Source of the DNA: Candidatus Omnitrophota bacterium
GTDB taxonomy: Bacteria > CAIJMQ01
NCBI GenBank assembly: GCA_018812925.1
Contig: JAHJCU010000004.1
Coordinates: 101,621 to 165,620, forward strand
Direction: 5' to 3'
DNA: 64,000 nt
Shown here: piece after piece, positions 57,954 to 63,383 of the stretch
How the letters are laid out: each line of letters begins with the position of its first letter
How positions within the stretch are numbered: the first letter of the stretch is position 1
Position numbers and translations under genes: made by a program
Notes under the pieces: generated by a model
What the model was told of the DNA's origin: nothing
Databases searched by the model: none
The model's input: only the letters and a program-made list of their open reading frames with translations

Positions 57954-58086
57954 TTCTTTCTCCAATCAACGCCAATTATATAGCAGAAAAGATTAGTCAT
58001 CAAACCAAATGTTCAAAAATTGCATTTTAAATTTAGAGCGGAATAGGTATAATAAAATTTAATAAAGAATATAATCATATAAAAAT

Positions 58087-58115
58087 GGAACTTTTTAGAG
58101 GATAAAACTGTCTAA
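58087..58115 (+). promoter_or_regulatory. ECF sigma-type promoter motif GGAACTT-N16-GTCTAA immediately upstream of the ECF sigma gene
   Basis: ggaactttttagaggataaaactgtctaa; the last base of GTCTAA abuts the ATG at 58116. Confidence 0.5.
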
Positions 58116-58724
58116 ATGATTGAAGAGATAAACAAGCAAGGTGGATTATTCGGGGACGATGAAGTTTTAATTAAGGCTTTTCAATCGGGAGATAAAAAGG
58201 CATTTGATAGGTTGTTGCTTGGACATATGAATAGGGTTTTCAATCTGTGCTACAGATTTATGAGCGACTATGAAGAAGCAAATGACTGTGCTCAAGAAAC
58301 CTTTATAAAAGTTTACCGGTCTTTGAATGGGTTTAAATTTCAGTCGTCCTTTTCAACATGGCTGTATAGAATAGCAGTAAACACATGTAAAAATAGGTTG
58401 AAATCGGCGGAATATAGAAACAGAATGCAAACTTTTAAAATCGGGGAGAATAAAGAACTGAATAACAATTCGTATACGGGTGAAATTGCGGACCAATCAT
58501 TGTCTCCCGTTACGCTTTTAGATAAAAAAGAGACGGAAGCATTAATTCAATCCGCGATAGATTCTTTGCCCGAGGAACAAAAAGAGATTATTGTGCTTCG
58601 CGATATAGAAGGATTTTCTTACGAGGAAATAGCAGATATAACGGACAATGAACTCGGCACAGTAAAATCAAAACTTTCAAGGGCAAGAGGTACACTTAAA
58701 GAAAAACTAAAGGGGTTAATTTAA
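58116..58724 (+). CDS. RNA polymerase sigma-70 factor, ECF subfamily
   Basis: Region 2 motifs (DCAQETFIKVYR, WLYRIAVNTCKN) and a region 4 helix-turn-helix. Confidence 0.85.
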   Translation: MIEEINKQGGLFGDDEVLIKAFQSGDKKAFDRLLLGHMNRVFNLCYRFMSDYEEANDCAQETFIKVYRSLNGFKFQSSFSTWLYRIAVNTCKNRLKSAEYRNRMQTFKIGENKELNNNSYTGEIADQSLSPVTLLDKKETEALIQSAIDSLPEEQKEIIVLRDIEGFSYEEIADITDNELGTVKSKLSRARGTLKEKLKGLI

Positions 58725-59726
58725 ATGGAATGCATAAAAGTTAAGGAGCTTTTGTCTGAGTATATTGACAATGTTCTTGATGAACAGTTAAAAAAATCTG
58801 TAGAAGAACATCTTCTAACCTGCAATAGTTGCGCTGAAGAACTTGCTTCATTAAAAACATATCTGGAGAAAATCAACTCTCTTGAGAAAATAGAAGCTCC
58901 CGTAAATTTTATTAAGAGTTTGAATGAAAAACTGGAAAACGAAAATCCAAAACCGCAGGAACAACCTAATTTTGAACCAAAGCCCGAATTTAAAGATACA
59001 AAACAAAAAGTATTTATGCCTTTCAAAATAAAACTGTCATTTAAATTTGCAGGTGCTTTAGCAATGCTACTATTGGTTGTTTACATTGTAAAGGTAATAC
59101 AACCGTCTGAGGAAATGACAACTGTTATACCGTCATCTCAAGAAAAAATAGTTACAGAAAAACTTATGGATAAAGAAGCCAAACAACTTGCATTAGAGAA
59201 GAGAGAAGAAGACTTGTCTTCTTCCGAAATAATAAAAGGAAATCAAGTTCCTTTATCTTTAGCAATGGAAAAAGAAAAAACTATCTCATCAACTGTTTCA
59301 GCGGCGAAACCTATTGAGTTGGTTCTTTTAATAAAGCCGGATATGCAGGTTAGAGCTTATAGCAGTGTGCGGACTACAAATCTCCAAATGAAATCGGTTG
59401 ACTTGATAGGCAAAGATAAAGACGTATTAGAGAGCGGGAAGCTTAGAGAAGCAGAAAACATTGGAGCAATGATGGATGAAAAAAACAGCGTTGTAATATC
59501 TTCTGAAATTGAAAACCTTGTAAGGTCTTTCGGCGGGAATGTTTTATCAGTAAAATATAGCCAAACTGAAACTCATGTTATATCTGCAGAGATTCCAAAA
59601 GATAAGTATAGTAATTTATTAAAAAGTTTGAATGAATTAAGCCAATTCCAAAAACCTTCTCCTTCAGTTATCGGAACAGAAGGAGACTCCCTTAAAATTC
59701 GCGTAAAGCTTATTCCTTCCAAGTAA
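58725..59726 (+). CDS. Anti-sigma factor (zf-HC2 type) with one TM helix and an extracytoplasmic domain
   Basis: N-terminal H-x3-C-x2-C (HLLTCNSCAEE); start directly follows the sigma stop; TM segment near aa 105-125. Confidence 0.6.
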   Translation: MECIKVKELLSEYIDNVLDEQLKKSVEEHLLTCNSCAEELASLKTYLEKINSLEKIEAPVNFIKSLNEKLENENPKPQEQPNFEPKPEFKDTKQKVFMPFKIKLSFKFAGALAMLLLVVYIVKVIQPSEEMTTVIPSSQEKIVTEKLMDKEAKQLALEKREEDLSSSEIIKGNQVPLSLAMEKEKTISSTVSAAKPIELVLLIKPDMQVRAYSSVRTTNLQMKSVDLIGKDKDVLESGKLREAENIGAMMDEKNSVVISSEIENLVRSFGGNVLSVKYSQTETHVISAEIPKDKYSNLLKSLNELSQFQKPSPSVIGTEGDSLKIRVKLIPSK

Positions 59727-59744
59727 CATTTCAAAAAATTTTCG

Positions 59745-59771
59745 GAACTTTTCTCTCTCTCCTTTGTCTAA
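59745..59771 (+). promoter_or_regulatory. Second ECF sigma-type promoter motif (GGAACTT-N14-GTCTAA) upstream of the VIT-vWA gene
   Basis: cggaacttttctctctctcctttgtctaa, about 40 nt before the AAGGAGGAG SD and the ATG at 59809. Confidence 0.5.
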
Positions 59772-59808
59772 ATAAGTGAAAACTAGAGAACAAACAAAGG
59801 AGGAGAAA

Positions 59809-61947
59809 ATGAAAACGAAAATATTTATATCGGTAATAGTATTGTTTCTATGCTTAGTTTTTGGATTAAAAGATGTGTTCGCAGACGGATTGATAATAGT
59901 TGACCCGCCAGGCGGTTTGCACCGCCCCCACCCAAAACCAGAGGCTTTATCCGTAAAATATCATAGAGTGCAGGTTAATATAGAAAACGGCATTGCTACC
60001 ACATCAATCGACCAAGTATTCATAAATAATTACGACGTGGATTTAGAAGGGACATATATATTCCCTCTACCTGAAGACGCTGCCATTTCGAACTTCACAA
60101 TGTATGTTGATGGCAAAAAAATGAAGGGCGAAATTCTAGATAAGGATAAAGCAAGACAGATTTATGAAGATATAGTAAGAAGGATGAAGGATCCGGCACT
60201 TTTAGAATATGTTGGAAGAAATATGTTTAAGATGCGAGTTTATCCGATACCTAAACGCGGAGAAAAAAGAATCGAATTGGTTTATCAGGAAACTTTAAAA
60301 TACGATGCAGGTATTTACAAGTATATATATCCGCTTAATACAGAAAAATTTTCTCCAAAACCATTAGAAGAAGTCACAATATCTGCAAATATAAAGTCAA
60401 AAATTCCTGTGAAAAACGTTTATTCACCGAGTCATGAAGTAGATATAAAAATTGAAGAATTTGAAGCAACTTGTGGATATGAAGCTGAAGATGTAAAGCC
60501 CGATAAAGACTTTGTTCTTTACTACACTGTATCGGAAAAGGATGTGGGATTAAATCTGCTTTGTTACAGAACTGGAAGCGAGGATGGATATTTTATGATG
60601 CTTCTTTCCCCCGGAGAATTGAAAGAGAAAATTGCAAGTAATAAGGATATTATATTCGTATTAGATACATCCGGAAGCATGAGCGGAGAAAAGATAAAAC
60701 AGGCAAAAGAAGCTTTGAAGTTCTGCATAAATAGTTTAAGTAAAGGTGATAAGTTTAACATACTAAGTTTTGCGACTGGTGTAAATAAGTACAAAGATAG
60801 CTTGGTTTCTGTAAATAATAAAAGTATTAACGAAGCTTTAGATTTTATTGATAACCTTTCAGCGAGAGGAGGCACTGATATCAATGATGCTCTTTCATCA
60901 GCGCTGGCAATGATTACTGATTCACAAAAACCCAAGATGATTATTTTTCTTACAGATGGACAACCTACTGTAGGAGTTACCGATATGAAAACCATCTTAA
61001 AAAATCTTGAGGGTTCTAATACAGCTAACGCAAGAGTTTTTGTATTCGGCGTGGGTAATGATGTAAACACACACCTCTTAGATAGAATTTCCCAAACGCA
61101 TAGAGGTTTAACTGAGTATGTAGTTCCAAGAGAGAATATTGAGATTAAAGTATCTTCTTTTTATCGCAAAATAAGCGAGCCGATTTTAGCAAATATAAGC
61201 TTGGATTTTAGAAAAATCAAAACGAAAGAAATTTATCCTGTTACATTACCTGATATATTTAAGGGTACTCAACTTGTTCTTTTGGGAAGATACGATGGGA
61301 ATGGGCCAACAGCTATTAAATTAACAGGATACCTCAATGGTAAAAAGGAACAAATCATCTATGAAGGCAATTTCCCATCGGAGAATAAAGAGAACGATTT
61401 TATTCCAAGGATATGGGCAATGAGAAAGATTGGATATCTAATGAGTGAAATACGCTTGAGAGGCGATAATAAAGAACTTATTGATGAGATAGTTGCGCTT
61501 AGTAAAGAATACGGCGTAATGACGCAATATACATCGTTTTTAGTCCTGGAAAAGGATGAGGATTATAAACGGTGGGGAATACATTCTAATGAGGCATCGA
61601 AGATGATAAAAGAAGGGAAGTTGTCTGTGGATGCGATGAAACAAACAACCGGAGCAAGAAGTGTATCAAGCTCTATGGATATAAGTGATTTAAAAGGTCA
61701 GTTGGTTGTTGAGGCTCCGAGAAGGGCGACCATTAAACATATAGGAGCAAAAACCTTCTATCAGCAGGAAAACGGTTCTTGGTTGGATTCAAAATTTAGC
61801 AAAGGATTAAGTATAAAAGATATAAAATATCTTAGCAAAGAATACTTTGAGATTCTAAAAGAAAACCCTGAACTTGGTAAATATTTTGCGATAGGAGAAA
61901 AGGTTGTTGTTGTATTTGACGGAATTTGTTATCGTATAACTGAATAA
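59809..61947 (+). CDS. Secreted VIT domain and von Willebrand factor A domain protein
   Basis: Signal peptide after the ATG at 59809 (strong SD; track start GTG 59776 is less likely); vWA MIDAS motif DTSGSMSG; VIT-like N-terminal region. Confidence 0.8.
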   Translation: MKTKIFISVIVLFLCLVFGLKDVFADGLIIVDPPGGLHRPHPKPEALSVKYHRVQVNIENGIATTSIDQVFINNYDVDLEGTYIFPLPEDAAISNFTMYVDGKKMKGEILDKDKARQIYEDIVRRMKDPALLEYVGRNMFKMRVYPIPKRGEKRIELVYQETLKYDAGIYKYIYPLNTEKFSPKPLEEVTISANIKSKIPVKNVYSPSHEVDIKIEEFEATCGYEAEDVKPDKDFVLYYTVSEKDVGLNLLCYRTGSEDGYFMMLLSPGELKEKIASNKDIIFVLDTSGSMSGEKIKQAKEALKFCINSLSKGDKFNILSFATGVNKYKDSLVSVNNKSINEALDFIDNLSARGGTDINDALSSALAMITDSQKPKMIIFLTDGQPTVGVTDMKTILKNLEGSNTANARVFVFGVGNDVNTHLLDRISQTHRGLTEYVVPRENIEIKVSSFYRKISEPILANISLDFRKIKTKEIYPVTLPDIFKGTQLVLLGRYDGNGPTAIKLTGYLNGKKEQIIYEGNFPSENKENDFIPRIWAMRKIGYLMSEIRLRGDNKELIDEIVALSKEYGVMTQYTSFLVLEKDEDYKRWGIHSNEASKMIKEGKLSVDAMKQTTGARSVSSSMDISDLKGQLVVEAPRRATIKHIGAKTFYQQENGSWLDSKFSKGLSIKDIKYLSKEYFEILKENPELGKYFAIGEKVVVVFDGICYRITE

Positions 61948-61970
61948 AAAATTAAAAAGGAGGAGTTGAG

Positions 61971-63383
61971 ATGAAAAGAATAATACTTTTTCTAGTAGTG
62001 AGTTTTTTGGTTGTAGCAGGAGCTTGTTCTGCAGCAGCGCCTCTTAAAAGCACGATTGATGACCAAGAACAGATATATATAACTATATACAACAATAACT
62101 TAGGATTGGTTAAGGATATTAGGGAAATCTATTTGCCGAGAGGCATTTCAGAACTACAGTTTATGGACGTGGCGCAAAAAATAAATCCGACTACAGTTCA
62201 TATAAAATCATTAATTGAACCCGATAGTTTATCTGTTCTGGAACAGAATTATGAATATGATTTACTCAATCCCGCCAAACTTTTGGACAAGTATGTGGGA
62301 CAGAAAGTAAAACTGGTAGGCTATAGTGGAGAGGAAGGATACGATGCAATTCTTTTAAGTACTAACCAAGGGTATATTTATAAAATTAATGATGAGATCC
62401 ATATAAACCCAGGTGGCAGAGTTATTCTGCCTAAGATACCCGAAAACCTGATTGCTAAACCAACTTTGGTATGGATGTTAAACAATACACTTAGAAGCAA
62501 ACAAAAAGTGGAGGCATCATATTTAACGGACGGCATAAACTGGAAAGCCGATTATGTTGCAATTCTGAACAAAGATGATACTAAGGCAGACTTGACCGGT
62601 TGGGTTACCATAGACAATAAAAGCGGAGCCGGTTATAAAGATGCCACTATTCAGTTGATAGCAGGAGATGTAAACAGAGTAACAGATGAAGGAAAATATG
62701 ATAGATCAAGGATTATGATGGAAAAAGCTTCAGTAGGAATGGACTCCTTGGGGTTTGCAGAAAAAGCATTCTTTGAATATCACATATATACTTTGGGAAG
62801 AAAATCAACCATCAAAGAAAACCAGACCAAACAAATAAGTTTACTTGAAGCATCCGATATTCCCATAAAGAAAAATTTAATCTTCTACGGTGCTGAATAT
62901 TATTATCGCAATCGTTATGGTGAACCGATCTCCAATCAAAAGGTAGGTGTTTATATTGATATTGAAAATAAGAAGGAAAACAATTTAGGTATGCCTTTTC
63001 CCAAGGGGATAGTAAGAGTTTACAAGGAAGACCACGAAGGAAGACTGCAGTTTGTAGGAGAAGACCGAATTGACCACACACCAAAAGACGAGACAATAGA
63101 GATAAAGATGGGCGAGGCATTTGATGTTGTGGGAGAGAGAACACAGATGGATTGGAAGAAAATTGCCAGTAATGTTTATGAAGCAGAGTGGGAAATATCT
63201 ATCCGCAATCATAAGGAAGAAGATGCTGAGGTTCAAATTATTGAGCCGATTCCAGGCGATTGGACAATCTTAAAGAGTTCTCATAAATACGAAAAAATAG
63301 AAGCGCATACCTTAAAATACACCGTCAAAGTTCCTAAGGATGGAGAAGTGAAGATAACTTATAGAGTTAGGATGACGTGGTGA
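61971..63383 (+). CDS. Secreted DUF4140/DUF4139-like protein (mucoidy inhibitor MuiA family-like)
   Basis: Signal peptide, beta-rich; N-terminal pattern resembles DUF4140; assignment by recollection only. Confidence 0.5.
   Translation: MKRIILFLVVSFLVVAGACSAAAPLKSTIDDQEQIYITIYNNNLGLVKDIREIYLPRGISELQFMDVAQKINPTTVHIKSLIEPDSLSVLEQNYEYDLLNPAKLLDKYVGQKVKLVGYSGEEGYDAILLSTNQGYIYKINDEIHINPGGRVILPKIPENLIAKPTLVWMLNNTLRSKQKVEASYLTDGINWKADYVAILNKDDTKADLTGWVTIDNKSGAGYKDATIQLIAGDVNRVTDEGKYDRSRIMMEKASVGMDSLGFAEKAFFEYHIYTLGRKSTIKENQTKQISLLEASDIPIKKNLIFYGAEYYYRNRYGEPISNQKVGVYIDIENKKENNLGMPFPKGIVRVYKEDHEGRLQFVGEDRIDHTPKDETIEIKMGEAFDVVGERTQMDWKKIASNVYEAEWEISIRNHKEEDAEVQIIEPIPGDWTILKSSHKYEKIEAHTLKYTVKVPKDGEVKITYRVRMTW

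Follow-up and report, generated by a model that had tools for sequence, protein, structure and literature searches.

A probable self-contained sigma-E-like ECF signalling cassette with exchangeable exported cargo in a Candidatus Omnitrophica genome

The 64-kb stretch of DNA analyzed in the current study (hereafter the window) belongs to an AT-rich (35.6% GC) Candidatus Omnitrophica MAG and carries four co-directional genes, for an ECF sigma factor, a zf-HC2 anti-sigma factor, a VIT+vWA protein and a DUF4139 protein, all of which were reproduced by our ORF check at the coordinates assigned in an earlier sequence-only reading of this DNA. The unit is bordered on the left by a divergent pfk gene and on the right by a convergent hydrolase gene, and its features are as follows:

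58026..58053, + strand: possible sigma-70-type (housekeeping) promoter, TTTAAA-16-TATAAT, 5' of the sigma gene (consensus scan, 10/12 matches)
58087..58115, + strand: P1, sigma-E-type motif GGAACTT-N16-GTCTAA, its -10 element abutting the sigma ATG
58116..58724, + strand: ECF (group IV) sigma factor, 202 aa, sigma-E-like (Pfam Sigma70_r2, r4_2)
58725..59726, + strand: class I (zf-HC2/ZAS-type) single-pass anti-sigma factor, 333 aa (zf-HC2, TM segment)
59744..59771, + strand: P2, sigma-E-type motif GGAACTT-N15-GTCTAA, 37 nt upstream of the VIT-vWA ATG
59809..61947, + strand: predicted exported VIT + vWA protein, 712 aa, with a complete MIDAS motif (Pfam, N-terminal signal segment)
61971..63383, + strand: predicted exported DUF4139 protein, 470 aa, all-beta multi-sandwich (Pfam DUF4139, AF2 model)

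No structured RNAs or tRNAs were found within the window, and a simple scan detected no intrinsic terminator 3' of the DUF4139 gene. A role of the locus in anti-phage defence was rejected, since PADLOC models returned no match to any of the four proteins at E<=1e-3.

The domains proposed in the sequence-only reading were recovered with Pfam for Sigma70_r2/r4, zf-HC2, VIT, VWA and DUF4139, whereas DUF4140 had no match in the window protein. The sigma factor matched Sigma70_r2 (63 bits, at 37-98), r4_2 (62.7 bits, at 143-193) and Sigma70_ECF (26 bits), and its score against the sigma70-ECF model TIGR02937 (117 bits, cut-off 42.9) places it in the ECF (group IV) family; its best NCBIfam match was TIGR02939 RpoE, at 162.8 bits and below the cut-off of 236.15. 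The anti-sigma ATG directly follows the sigma stop codon, with a purine run of the AAGGA type readable in the sequence about 10 nt before it, and the encoded protein carries a zf-HC2 domain (35.5 bits, residues 3-37) in which all three residues of H29-x3-C33-x2-C36 are invariant in 30 homologues. The AF2 model of this N-domain matched RsiW (5wuq_D) in Foldseek with a probability of 1.0, and also RslA, and its helical character together with the H-x3-C-x2-C motif assigns the protein to the class I (ASDI, ZAS-type) anti-sigma factors. Hydropathy agreed with the one TM helix proposed earlier, as a single segment at about 100-129. AF2 predicts that most of the ectodomain is disordered, apart from a small C-terminal domain of ferredoxin-like fold, similar to the periplasmic domains of GspL/M; Pfam gave only sub-threshold hints of DUF4349 and DUF2275 for the ectodomain. 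Gene adjacency, the abutting stop and start codons and homology suggest that this protein binds and inhibits its cognate sigma factor.

Both cargo proteins begin with hydrophobic, signal-like segments in the hydropathy analysis, as expected from the secreted nature ascribed to them previously. The VIT-vWA gene, whose ATG is preceded by AAGGAGGAG, encodes a VIT domain (112 bits) followed by a vWA domain (VWA/VWA_3 78-88 bits, VWA_3 = 88; Pfam) with a complete MIDAS (DxSxS...T...D), which is the architecture of VIT-vWA (ITIH-like) proteins, and none of the MIDAS residues (D286-x-S288-x-S290, T356, D383) varies among 30 homologues. Its scores against the sorted families were below their cut-offs (TIGR03788, 332 against 552; TIGR04477, 63.5 against 250; TIGR04286, 60.7 against 150), and its C-terminus, ending in VVVFDGICYRITE, has no LPXTG or PEP motif that would indicate sortase or PEP-CTERM sorting.

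The DUF4139 gene begins 23 nt past the end of the VIT-vWA gene and is therefore probably co-transcribed with it; no promoter motif was found in the gap. Its product matched DUF4139 over residues 181-470 (43 bits, cut-off 31.8), and a homologue in the related locus L016 showed a weak, sub-threshold match to DUF4140 (18 bits against 27). The AF2 model (pLDDT 77.6) is all beta; no PDB sequence relatives were found, and the fold matches were limited to generic beta-sandwiches or weakly ribophorin-I-like structures. The clade comprises 2,186 clusters at 50% identity (E<=1e-30), and homologues across phyla share 58-88% identity. MuiA presumably carries a DUF4139 domain, and the NCBIfam family bearing the MuiA name is TIGR02231. 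The window protein did not match that family even at E<=10, and 8 of 10 longer relatives gave weak collinear matches of 13-20 bits, far from the cut-off of 112.6. Orthology with MuiA was thus rejected, and by these comparisons the DUF4139 protein is a distant MuiA relative only.

The sequence GGAACTT-N{13,18}-GTCTAA, previously noted twice in promoter position, matched exactly two sites in 64 kb, before the sigma gene and before the VIT-vWA gene, against 0.03 expected; none of 100 shuffled windows held two matches, and looser versions of the motif added nothing credible in the window. It corresponds to the classical sigma-E consensus, as exemplified by E. coli rpoE P2 (GGAACTT-N16-TCTAA). In the first copy, the -10 hexamer (58110-58115) runs straight into the sigma ATG at 58116, an arrangement that the sequence-only reading had missed. 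A GTG at 59776, in frame with VIT-vWA and 4 nt beyond the P2 -10 element, was rejected as a leaderless start and is treated as a coincidence, since L169 does not conserve it in frame.

The motif is likewise placed at both sites in related loci of Caldisericota, Spirochaetota, Omnitrophota, PVC phyla, Methylomirabilales and a Deltaproteobacteria MAG, as well as on many soil metagenome contigs, and in all sigma-linked relatives examined it precedes the sigma gene and the first cargo gene, which bears out the earlier proposal of an ECF-type promoter for regulator and output. The copy at the P1 position is kept in L084, L169, L170, L174, L004, L008, L013 and many other loci, a P2-type motif precedes VIT-vWA in L004, L008, L009, L013, L169-L172 and L176, and alignment identified P2 as orthologous to the promoter preceding DUF4139 in L084. 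The presence of the sigma-E consensus at both positions across many phyla supports a sigma-dependent module with cis-linked targets, and consensus and conservation together suggest that P1 and P2 are used as promoters.

The gene content behind the second motif varied among relatives. In the slot beside the divergent pfk gene, L084 carries sigma/anti-sigma/DUF4139, L170 carries sigma/anti-sigma/VIT-vWA/serpin and L169 carries sigma/anti-sigma/VIT-vWA/serpin/DUF4139, and in L174 the sigma/anti-sigma pair has no cis cargo. VIT-vWA and DUF4139 genes lie jointly under the sigma factor only in the window and L169. Among metagenome loci anchored on DUF4139, VIT-vWA was nearby in 0 of 80, and a DUF4139 neighbour was present in 1 of 80 genome loci anchored on VIT-vWA (L016, in reverse order and without a sigma gene). 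A conserved four-gene operon was rejected on these counts; likewise, they do not support a conserved dedicated two-gene output, of the kind originally proposed, and point to two separate and interchangeable cargoes. GGAAC-N15-19-GTC lay within 320 bp upstream in 55 of the 70 DUF4139-anchored loci whose 5' flank reached 150 bp or more (background 0.084 per 330 bp), and a same-strand sigma homologue was located upstream in 21 of the 32 with at least 2.3 kb. For VIT-vWA-anchored loci the motif was within 320 bp in 24 of 79, and those bearing it without an adjacent sigma gene include L005, L010, L011, L171 and L172. Recurrent cargo partners of VIT-vWA are a serpin, alpha-2-macroglobulin, ARPP-1 or a second vWA protein. 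Protease inhibitor genes adjoin about 6 of about 85 VIT-vWA loci and are co-operonic with VIT-vWA as serpin (L169, L170) or alpha-2-macroglobulin (L030, L045); the window's own cassette has none.

The best explanation of these observations, to which we assign a probability of roughly 0.7, is a self-contained sigma-E-like ECF signalling cassette with exchangeable cis cargo. By homology, the 202-aa sigma factor would be held at the membrane by the co-translated, RsiW-like zinc-finger anti-sigma factor until an envelope or extracellular cue inactivates the latter, most likely through regulated proteolysis as in RsiW and RseA. The released sigma factor would then direct RNA polymerase to GGAACTT-N15/16-GTCTAA promoters. 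From P2, one transcript would supply two exported proteins, the VIT+vWA protein with its intact MIDAS ligand-binding site and the highly conserved DUF4139 protein with its beta-sandwich fold; both would probably serve outside the cytoplasm, in binding or as scaffolds, and may remodel or protect the cell surface. P1 would provide feedback on the regulators, whose sign is left uncertain by the placing of the -10 element directly against the sigma start codon. Sigma factor, anti-sigma factor and target promoter would form a conserved chassis, and the genes behind the target promoter (DUF4139, VIT-vWA, serpin, alpha-2-macroglobulin, ARPP-1 or a second vWA protein) would be exchangeable, the window representing a lineage-specific combination of two of them.

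The feedback at P1 admits another reading. As a rule, ECF sigma factors of the sigma-E-like kind regulate their own genes positively, a general property according to PMC7826278, and for the sigma gene of the window this is plausible by way of P1. In most family members, across phyla, the only usable sigma start codon lies 0-4 nt past the GTCTAA hexamer, no conserved Shine-Dalgarno sequence precedes the sigma gene across related loci from several phyla, and in three PVC loci (L030, L045 and L058) the first ATG and the -10 element even share bases (ATGTCTAA). Transcription canonically begins about 6-7 nt after the -10 hexamer, so a sigma-dependent transcript would lack the start codon and positive autoregulation is not secure; the autoregulation suggested in the sequence-only reading thus stays plausible yet unproven, the start codon lying within or against the expected transcription start region. 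It is possible, at somewhat under one chance in three, that P1 is not positively autoregulatory or that the sigma mRNA is leaderless. In the former case the sigma mRNA would be made from an upstream housekeeping promoter, and a P1 transcript starting inside or after the sigma start codon would express only the anti-sigma factor, as negative feedback, or nothing useful; in the latter, the distance from -10 to transcription start would be unusually short. The sigma-70-like TTTAAA-16-TATAAT upstream and the purine run before the anti-sigma factor's own start codon would fit the former; however, the number of such sigma-70-like matches in this AT-rich region is not above that in shuffles, which leaves the match a candidate only, and the steady, tight spacing at P1 looks selected and suits leaderless translation better than a dead transcript.

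Another possibility, which we regard as doubtful, is that VIT-vWA and/or DUF4139 are partners of the anti-sigma ectodomain that tune signalling, as RseB-like co-sensors or feedback modulators, and not end effectors. The tight linkage of cargo genes to the regulator pair in many lineages and the small interaction-type domain of the ectodomain are compatible with such a role, as is the naming of P. aeruginosa MuiA for its effect on alginate, the output of a different ECF sigma factor (PMC10418997). Nevertheless, the cargo changes while homology of the anti-sigma factor extends along its entire length, which would be unexpected for an obligate sensor partner; many DUF4139 and VIT-vWA genes unlinked to a sigma gene still carry the promoter, and L174 retains the pair without cis cargo. 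The same unlinked, motif-bearing genes, and a motif indistinguishable from the general sigma-E consensus, mean that another RpoE-like sigma factor of the genome could also read the sites. That such a factor reads both motifs while the linked sigma has another specificity is nonetheless very unlikely, given that the motif pair accompanies the sigma gene in phyla very far apart, that the linked sigma is itself sigma-E-like, and that some variants are specific to a locus and shared by its P1 and P2 (for example GGAACAA in L009, GGAACCTTTTT in L153). Chance, in favour of which only the AT-richness of the genome can be invoked, has a negligible probability and was refuted as the origin of the motif pair and gene order by the motif counts and the conservation of the arrangement in dozens of independent loci.

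Beyond the self-contained cassette, a more speculative and in our view improbable joint reading combines an 'extracellular protease alarm' chassis with a leaderless sigma mRNA or built-in negative feedback. Foreign proteases could destroy the long, disordered and protease-accessible anti-sigma ectodomain and free the sigma factor, which could induce an exported trap or shield of VIT-vWA scaffolds, serpin or alpha-2-macroglobulin, and DUF4139. If true, this would be a widespread bacterial, prokaryotic counterpart of the inter-alpha-trypsin-inhibitor system, and a leaderless sigma mRNA touching the -10 element would imply non-canonical start-site selection by an ECF holoenzyme, or else feedback of negative sign built into the locus.

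Overall, the four-gene locus is a real and fairly ordinary stress-signalling cassette, in which a sigma-E-like sigma factor with a membrane anti-sigma factor probably switches on two exported binding proteins; its sole unusual points are the variable cargo and the start codon set directly against the promoter, and it reveals no new regulatory principle. The recurrence of VIT-vWA and DUF4139 genes behind a sigma-E-type promoter, often beside a sigma/anti-sigma pair and in many uncultivated phyla, provides a testable regulatory handle for two large exported families of no known function, the bacterial VIT-vWA proteins and the DUF4139 clade. Besides, the match of the promoter to the E. coli sigma-E consensus suggests simple heterologous experiments.

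In comparison with known systems, the VIT-vWA cargo shares domain order and an intact MIDAS with eukaryotic ITIH (VIT+vWA), the partner of bikunin, and in some relatives (L169, L170, L030, L045) it is likewise associated, through a common operon, with protease inhibitors. On the other hand, no sign of covalent glycosaminoglycan linkage or of an inhibitor complex is apparent, and the window lacks an inhibitor gene. The anti-sigma factor resembles that of B. subtilis SigW-RsiW in its RsiW-like N-domain with H-x3-C-x2-C and in crossing the membrane once, a topology suggestive of control by regulated proteolysis, but its ectodomain, made up of long disordered linkers plus a small domain of ferredoxin-like fold, is different. 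SigW promoters are of the type TGAAAC-N16-CGTA, whereas those of the window are of sigma-E type, and the window sigma factor is below the SigW cut-offs.

Our literature search on ECF sigma factors with VIT/vWA and on DUF4139 found no description of such a module. An ECF-to-MuiA regulon is, nevertheless, already described, and the sequence-only reading, which knew of no regulon pairing VIT-vWA proteins with an ECF sigma factor and a MuiA-like protein, is out of date as regards the link between the latter two: the ECF sigma factor SbrI of P. aeruginosa, controlled by the anti-sigma factor SbrR, activates muiA in an envelope-stress response (McGuffie et al., 2016, as summarised in PMC10418997). 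In both systems an ECF sigma factor and its cognate anti-sigma factor go with a gene for an exported MuiA-type protein, the main target in P. aeruginosa and a putative target in the window. They differ in that muiA is unlinked to sbrIR while the target in the window lies in cis behind its own promoter, in that the window DUF4139 protein is not a TIGR02231 member, and in the VIT-vWA cargo, which does not figure in the review's summary of the P. aeruginosa system.

The E. coli RpoE-RseA-RseB-RseC system (ECF02) is similar in its sigma factor (38% identity), in the adjacency of sigma and anti-sigma genes and in a near-identical promoter consensus, GGAACTT-N16-(G)TCTAA, with P1 and P2 both conforming to GGAACTT-N16-TCNAA. 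Membership in RpoE/RseA (ECF02) was rejected, since the window sigma factor is below the RpoE equivalog cut-off of TIGR02939 (163 against 236) and the zf-HC2/RsiW-like anti-sigma factor has no similarity to RseA (E=4). Moreover, VIT-vWA and DUF4139 genes stand downstream in place of RseB/RseC, and whereas E. coli RpoE governs a large dispersed regulon, the 64 kb examined here present a dedicated cargo in cis.

The region 58087-63383 contains four same-direction ORFs, as the sequence-only reading had described, and Pfam searches together with a hydropathy scan confirmed the sigma, zf-HC2, VIT/vWA and DUF4139 assignments; the DUF4140 label was not confirmed, as Pfam gave no match to this domain in the window protein. 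The features are:

58087-58115, sigma-E-type motif before the sigma gene (P1)
58116-58724, ECF sigma factor, 202 aa (Sigma70_r2 and r4_2)
58725-59726, anti-sigma factor, 333 aa, with an N-terminal zf-HC2 domain and one TM segment at about 100-129
59744-59771, sigma-E-type motif before the VIT-vWA gene (P2)
59809-61947, VIT-vWA protein (VIT 112 bits, vWA 78-88 bits) with a signal-like N-terminal segment, starting at an ATG with a AAGGAGGAG ribosome-binding site
61971-63383, DUF4139 protein (43 bits, cut-off 31.8), also with a signal-like N-terminal segment

A divergent pfk gene borders the module on one side and a convergent hydrolase gene on the other, and the window sequence is identical in the Candidatus Omnitrophica MAG GCA_018822305.1. 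The window (1-64000) has a GC content of 35.6%, and neither tRNA genes nor Rfam families at gathering score were found across its 64 kb.

The pattern GGAACTT-N13-18-GTCTAA matched exactly twice in the 64 kb, at P1 and P2, against an expectation of 0.03 and with no shuffle reaching two matches, which upholds the earlier observation of a repeated motif in promoter position; relaxed patterns added nothing credible across the window. Since the sigma-E-dependent rpoE P2 promoter of Escherichia coli reads GGAACTT-N16-TCTAA, the window motif is the ordinary sigma-E-type consensus rather than a new signal.

Conservation was assessed by searches anchored separately on VIT-vWA (80 genome loci, many phyla), DUF4139 (80 metagenome loci) and the anti-sigma factor. 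A homologous sigma gene was found upstream of VIT-vWA in only 8 of the 58 loci with enough flank (L004, Caldisericota; L008 and L013, Spirochaetota; L009, Omnitrophota; and four PVC loci), seven of them with a detectable anti-sigma homologue. The relaxed motif GGAAC-N15-19-GTC occurred within 320 bp upstream of VIT-vWA in 24 of 79 loci, including loci without an adjacent sigma gene; the background rate is 0.084 per 330 bp. Of the DUF4139-anchored loci, 70 had 150 bp or more of upstream sequence, and 55 of these carried the motif, typically 60-130 bp before the gene; where the upstream sequence reached 2.3 kb or more (32 loci), 21 carried a sigma gene. The anti-sigma anchor recovered a sigma/anti-sigma pair alone with the motif (L174) and a sigma/anti-sigma/VIT-vWA locus with motifs in a Deltaproteobacteria MAG (L176). 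Because the motif stood before both the sigma gene and the first cargo gene (the cargo being the genes behind the target promoter) in every sigma-linked locus examined, this phylogenetic footprint strongly supports a module that depends on the sigma factor and has its target in cis. In addition, eight DUF4139 genes without a detectable upstream sigma gene were preceded by a variant, GGAAC[CT]AAAT...TTGTCT[TA]T (L104 2199, L113 2138, L115 1335, L124 388, L125 2861, L126 2754, L128 1716, L145 1868), whose -10 is GTCTTT in seven loci and GTCTAT in L145. This variant suggests that a related ECF sigma, differing slightly in the -10 it prefers, controls these genes in trans.

The regulatory interpretation of the sequence-only reading was largely right, and as an ECF sigma/anti-sigma cassette the module is typical, but its "dedicated two-gene output" is not conserved. 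Close relatives vary in the content of a shared chromosomal slot beside a divergent pfk-dapB-pabB cluster, and cargo also differs among lineages:

Gene content of the pfk-dapB-pabB slot and cargo of other lineages
Window: sigma/anti-sigma/VIT-vWA/DUF4139
L084: sigma/anti-sigma/DUF4139 (DUF4139 87% identical to the window protein)
L170: sigma/anti-sigma/VIT-vWA/serpin
L169: sigma/anti-sigma/VIT-vWA/serpin/DUF4139
PVC phyla: ARPP-1, VIT-vWA, alpha-2-macroglobulin-like protein
Spirochaetota and another Omnitrophota contig: VIT-vWA and a second vWA protein

The end of the window anti-sigma gene and P2 align with the promoter preceding DUF4139 in L084, indicating that cargo genes are gained or lost behind a fixed target promoter. 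No VIT-vWA gene was found near DUF4139 in the 80 DUF4139-anchored metagenome loci. The window thus pairs two independent cargo types in a combination specific to its lineage. On another Omnitrophota contig (L171; 1-7, 5001-8315), a VIT-vWA/VWA_4 pair with the motif in front of it has a DUF4139 gene about 5 kb upstream, so that both families share a neighbourhood but form separate transcription units. VIT-vWA homologues 44-52% identical were also found on archaea-binned contigs (Altiarchaeota, Methanothrix; L016 6519-10256, L060, L061, L063); L016, the only one of the 80 genome loci with a DUF4139 neighbour, has this gene directly 5' of VIT-vWA, in reversed order and without a sigma gene. Horizontal transfer, mis-binning or a functional relationship of the two proteins could explain these findings.

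The position of the sigma start codon complicates the role of P1. In most family members, 0-4 nt separate the -10 hexamer GTCTAA from the start codon, which is the sole one in frame ahead of sigma region 2.1 (window 58110-58118, L004 6405-6413, L008 6155-6163, L013 5856-5864, L174 4395-4403; also loci of soil clades, for example L119, L136 and L168). The arrangement is GTCTAAATG in Omnitrophota, Caldisericota and Spirochaetota and GTCTAAccGTG or GTCTAActggATG in GC-rich soil clades; three of the four PVC loci have a first ATG that overlaps the -10 element. Under canonical ECF geometry, a sigma-dependent P1 transcript would begin at or past the start codon, and no conserved Shine-Dalgarno sequence precedes it among family members. 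Consequently, one reading is a leaderless sigma mRNA whose start site is unusually close to the -10 element. In the other, P1 provides no positive autoregulation, its transcript being unable to encode sigma, and expression of the sigma factor would depend on a promoter further upstream, such as the candidate TTTAAA-16-TATAAT at 58026-58053. At P2, a GTG 4 nt past the -10 hexamer and in the VIT-vWA frame would add 11 residues (59776-59808); an ATG in frame lies 7 nt past the hexamer in L008, but the frame is not kept in L169, and the GTG is probably a coincidence.

Regarding the cargo proteins, the MIDAS site of VIT-vWA is complete (D286-x-S288-x-S290, T356, D383) and invariant among 30 homologues, and no sortase or PEP-CTERM sorting signal was found in this protein. 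DUF4139 is unusually conserved (58-88% identity across Omnitrophica, Kiritimatiellia, Binatia, Nitrospiraceae and Methylomirabilales), its family comprises 2,186 50%-identity clusters at E<=1e-30, and the AF2 model of the window protein (pLDDT 77.6) is an all-beta multi-sandwich without a sequence relative in the PDB. Non-enzymatic binding or scaffold roles are tentatively proposed for both. A serpin gene lies 3' of VIT-vWA in the same putative sigma-controlled operon in L169 (7268-8494) and L170 (5290-6540). In PVC loci, a second sigma-E-type motif precedes a secreted ARPP-1 (PF20208), which follows sigma/anti-sigma and is followed by VIT-vWA and, in L030 (4873-13464) and L045 (4817-15008), by an alpha-2-macroglobulin-like protein; L058 and L064 have the ARPP-1/VIT-vWA pair without an adjacent alpha-2-macroglobulin gene, L055 has an alpha-2-macroglobulin-like fragment near the pair, and by tblastn the pair is present in 12 loci. 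Because VIT-vWA recurs in relatives with a serpin or alpha-2-macroglobulin behind the same promoter and the anti-sigma factor has a long disordered ectodomain, an anti-protease or trapping response set off by proteases might be envisaged, in analogy to the mammalian inter-alpha-trypsin inhibitor. However, only ~6 of ~85 VIT-vWA loci have an adjacent inhibitor, inhibitor genes are absent from the window, and we regard such a response as unlikely.

Overall, the value of the module lies mainly in the regulatory handle on VIT-vWA and DUF4139, two large families without known function, and in the odd overlap of promoter and start codon at the sigma gene. Our literature searches, which covered sources other than the ECF Hub group tables, retrieved no ECF-controlled VIT-vWA gene and no cis-linked DUF4139 module, and the module may already be catalogued in the ECF Hub as a group with conserved context. 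The window sigma shares 38% identity with E. coli RpoE, with a similar promoter consensus, its best NCBIfam match is the RpoE equivalog below cut-off (163 vs 236), and a rough NJ tree places it in a clade with VIT-vWA as usual cargo, L084 being the nearest neighbour. The anti-sigma factor showed no relationship to its E. coli counterpart RseA; its N-domain, with invariant H-x3-C-x2-C residues, resembles RsiW and RslA in the AF2 model, in which a TM helix, two stretches of predicted disorder (together ~110 residues) and a small ferredoxin-like domain follow. The window DUF4139 protein gave no match to TIGR02231 and was rejected as a MuiA-family member, and eight of ten longer DUF4139 relatives gave weak, collinear, sub-threshold matches, consistent with distant homology only. 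An ECF-to-MuiA link is already published: the nearest described system is the SbrI/SbrR sigma/anti-sigma pair of Pseudomonas aeruginosa, which responds to envelope stress and whose target muiA encodes "mucoidy inhibitor A" (PMC10418997; PMC7603352).
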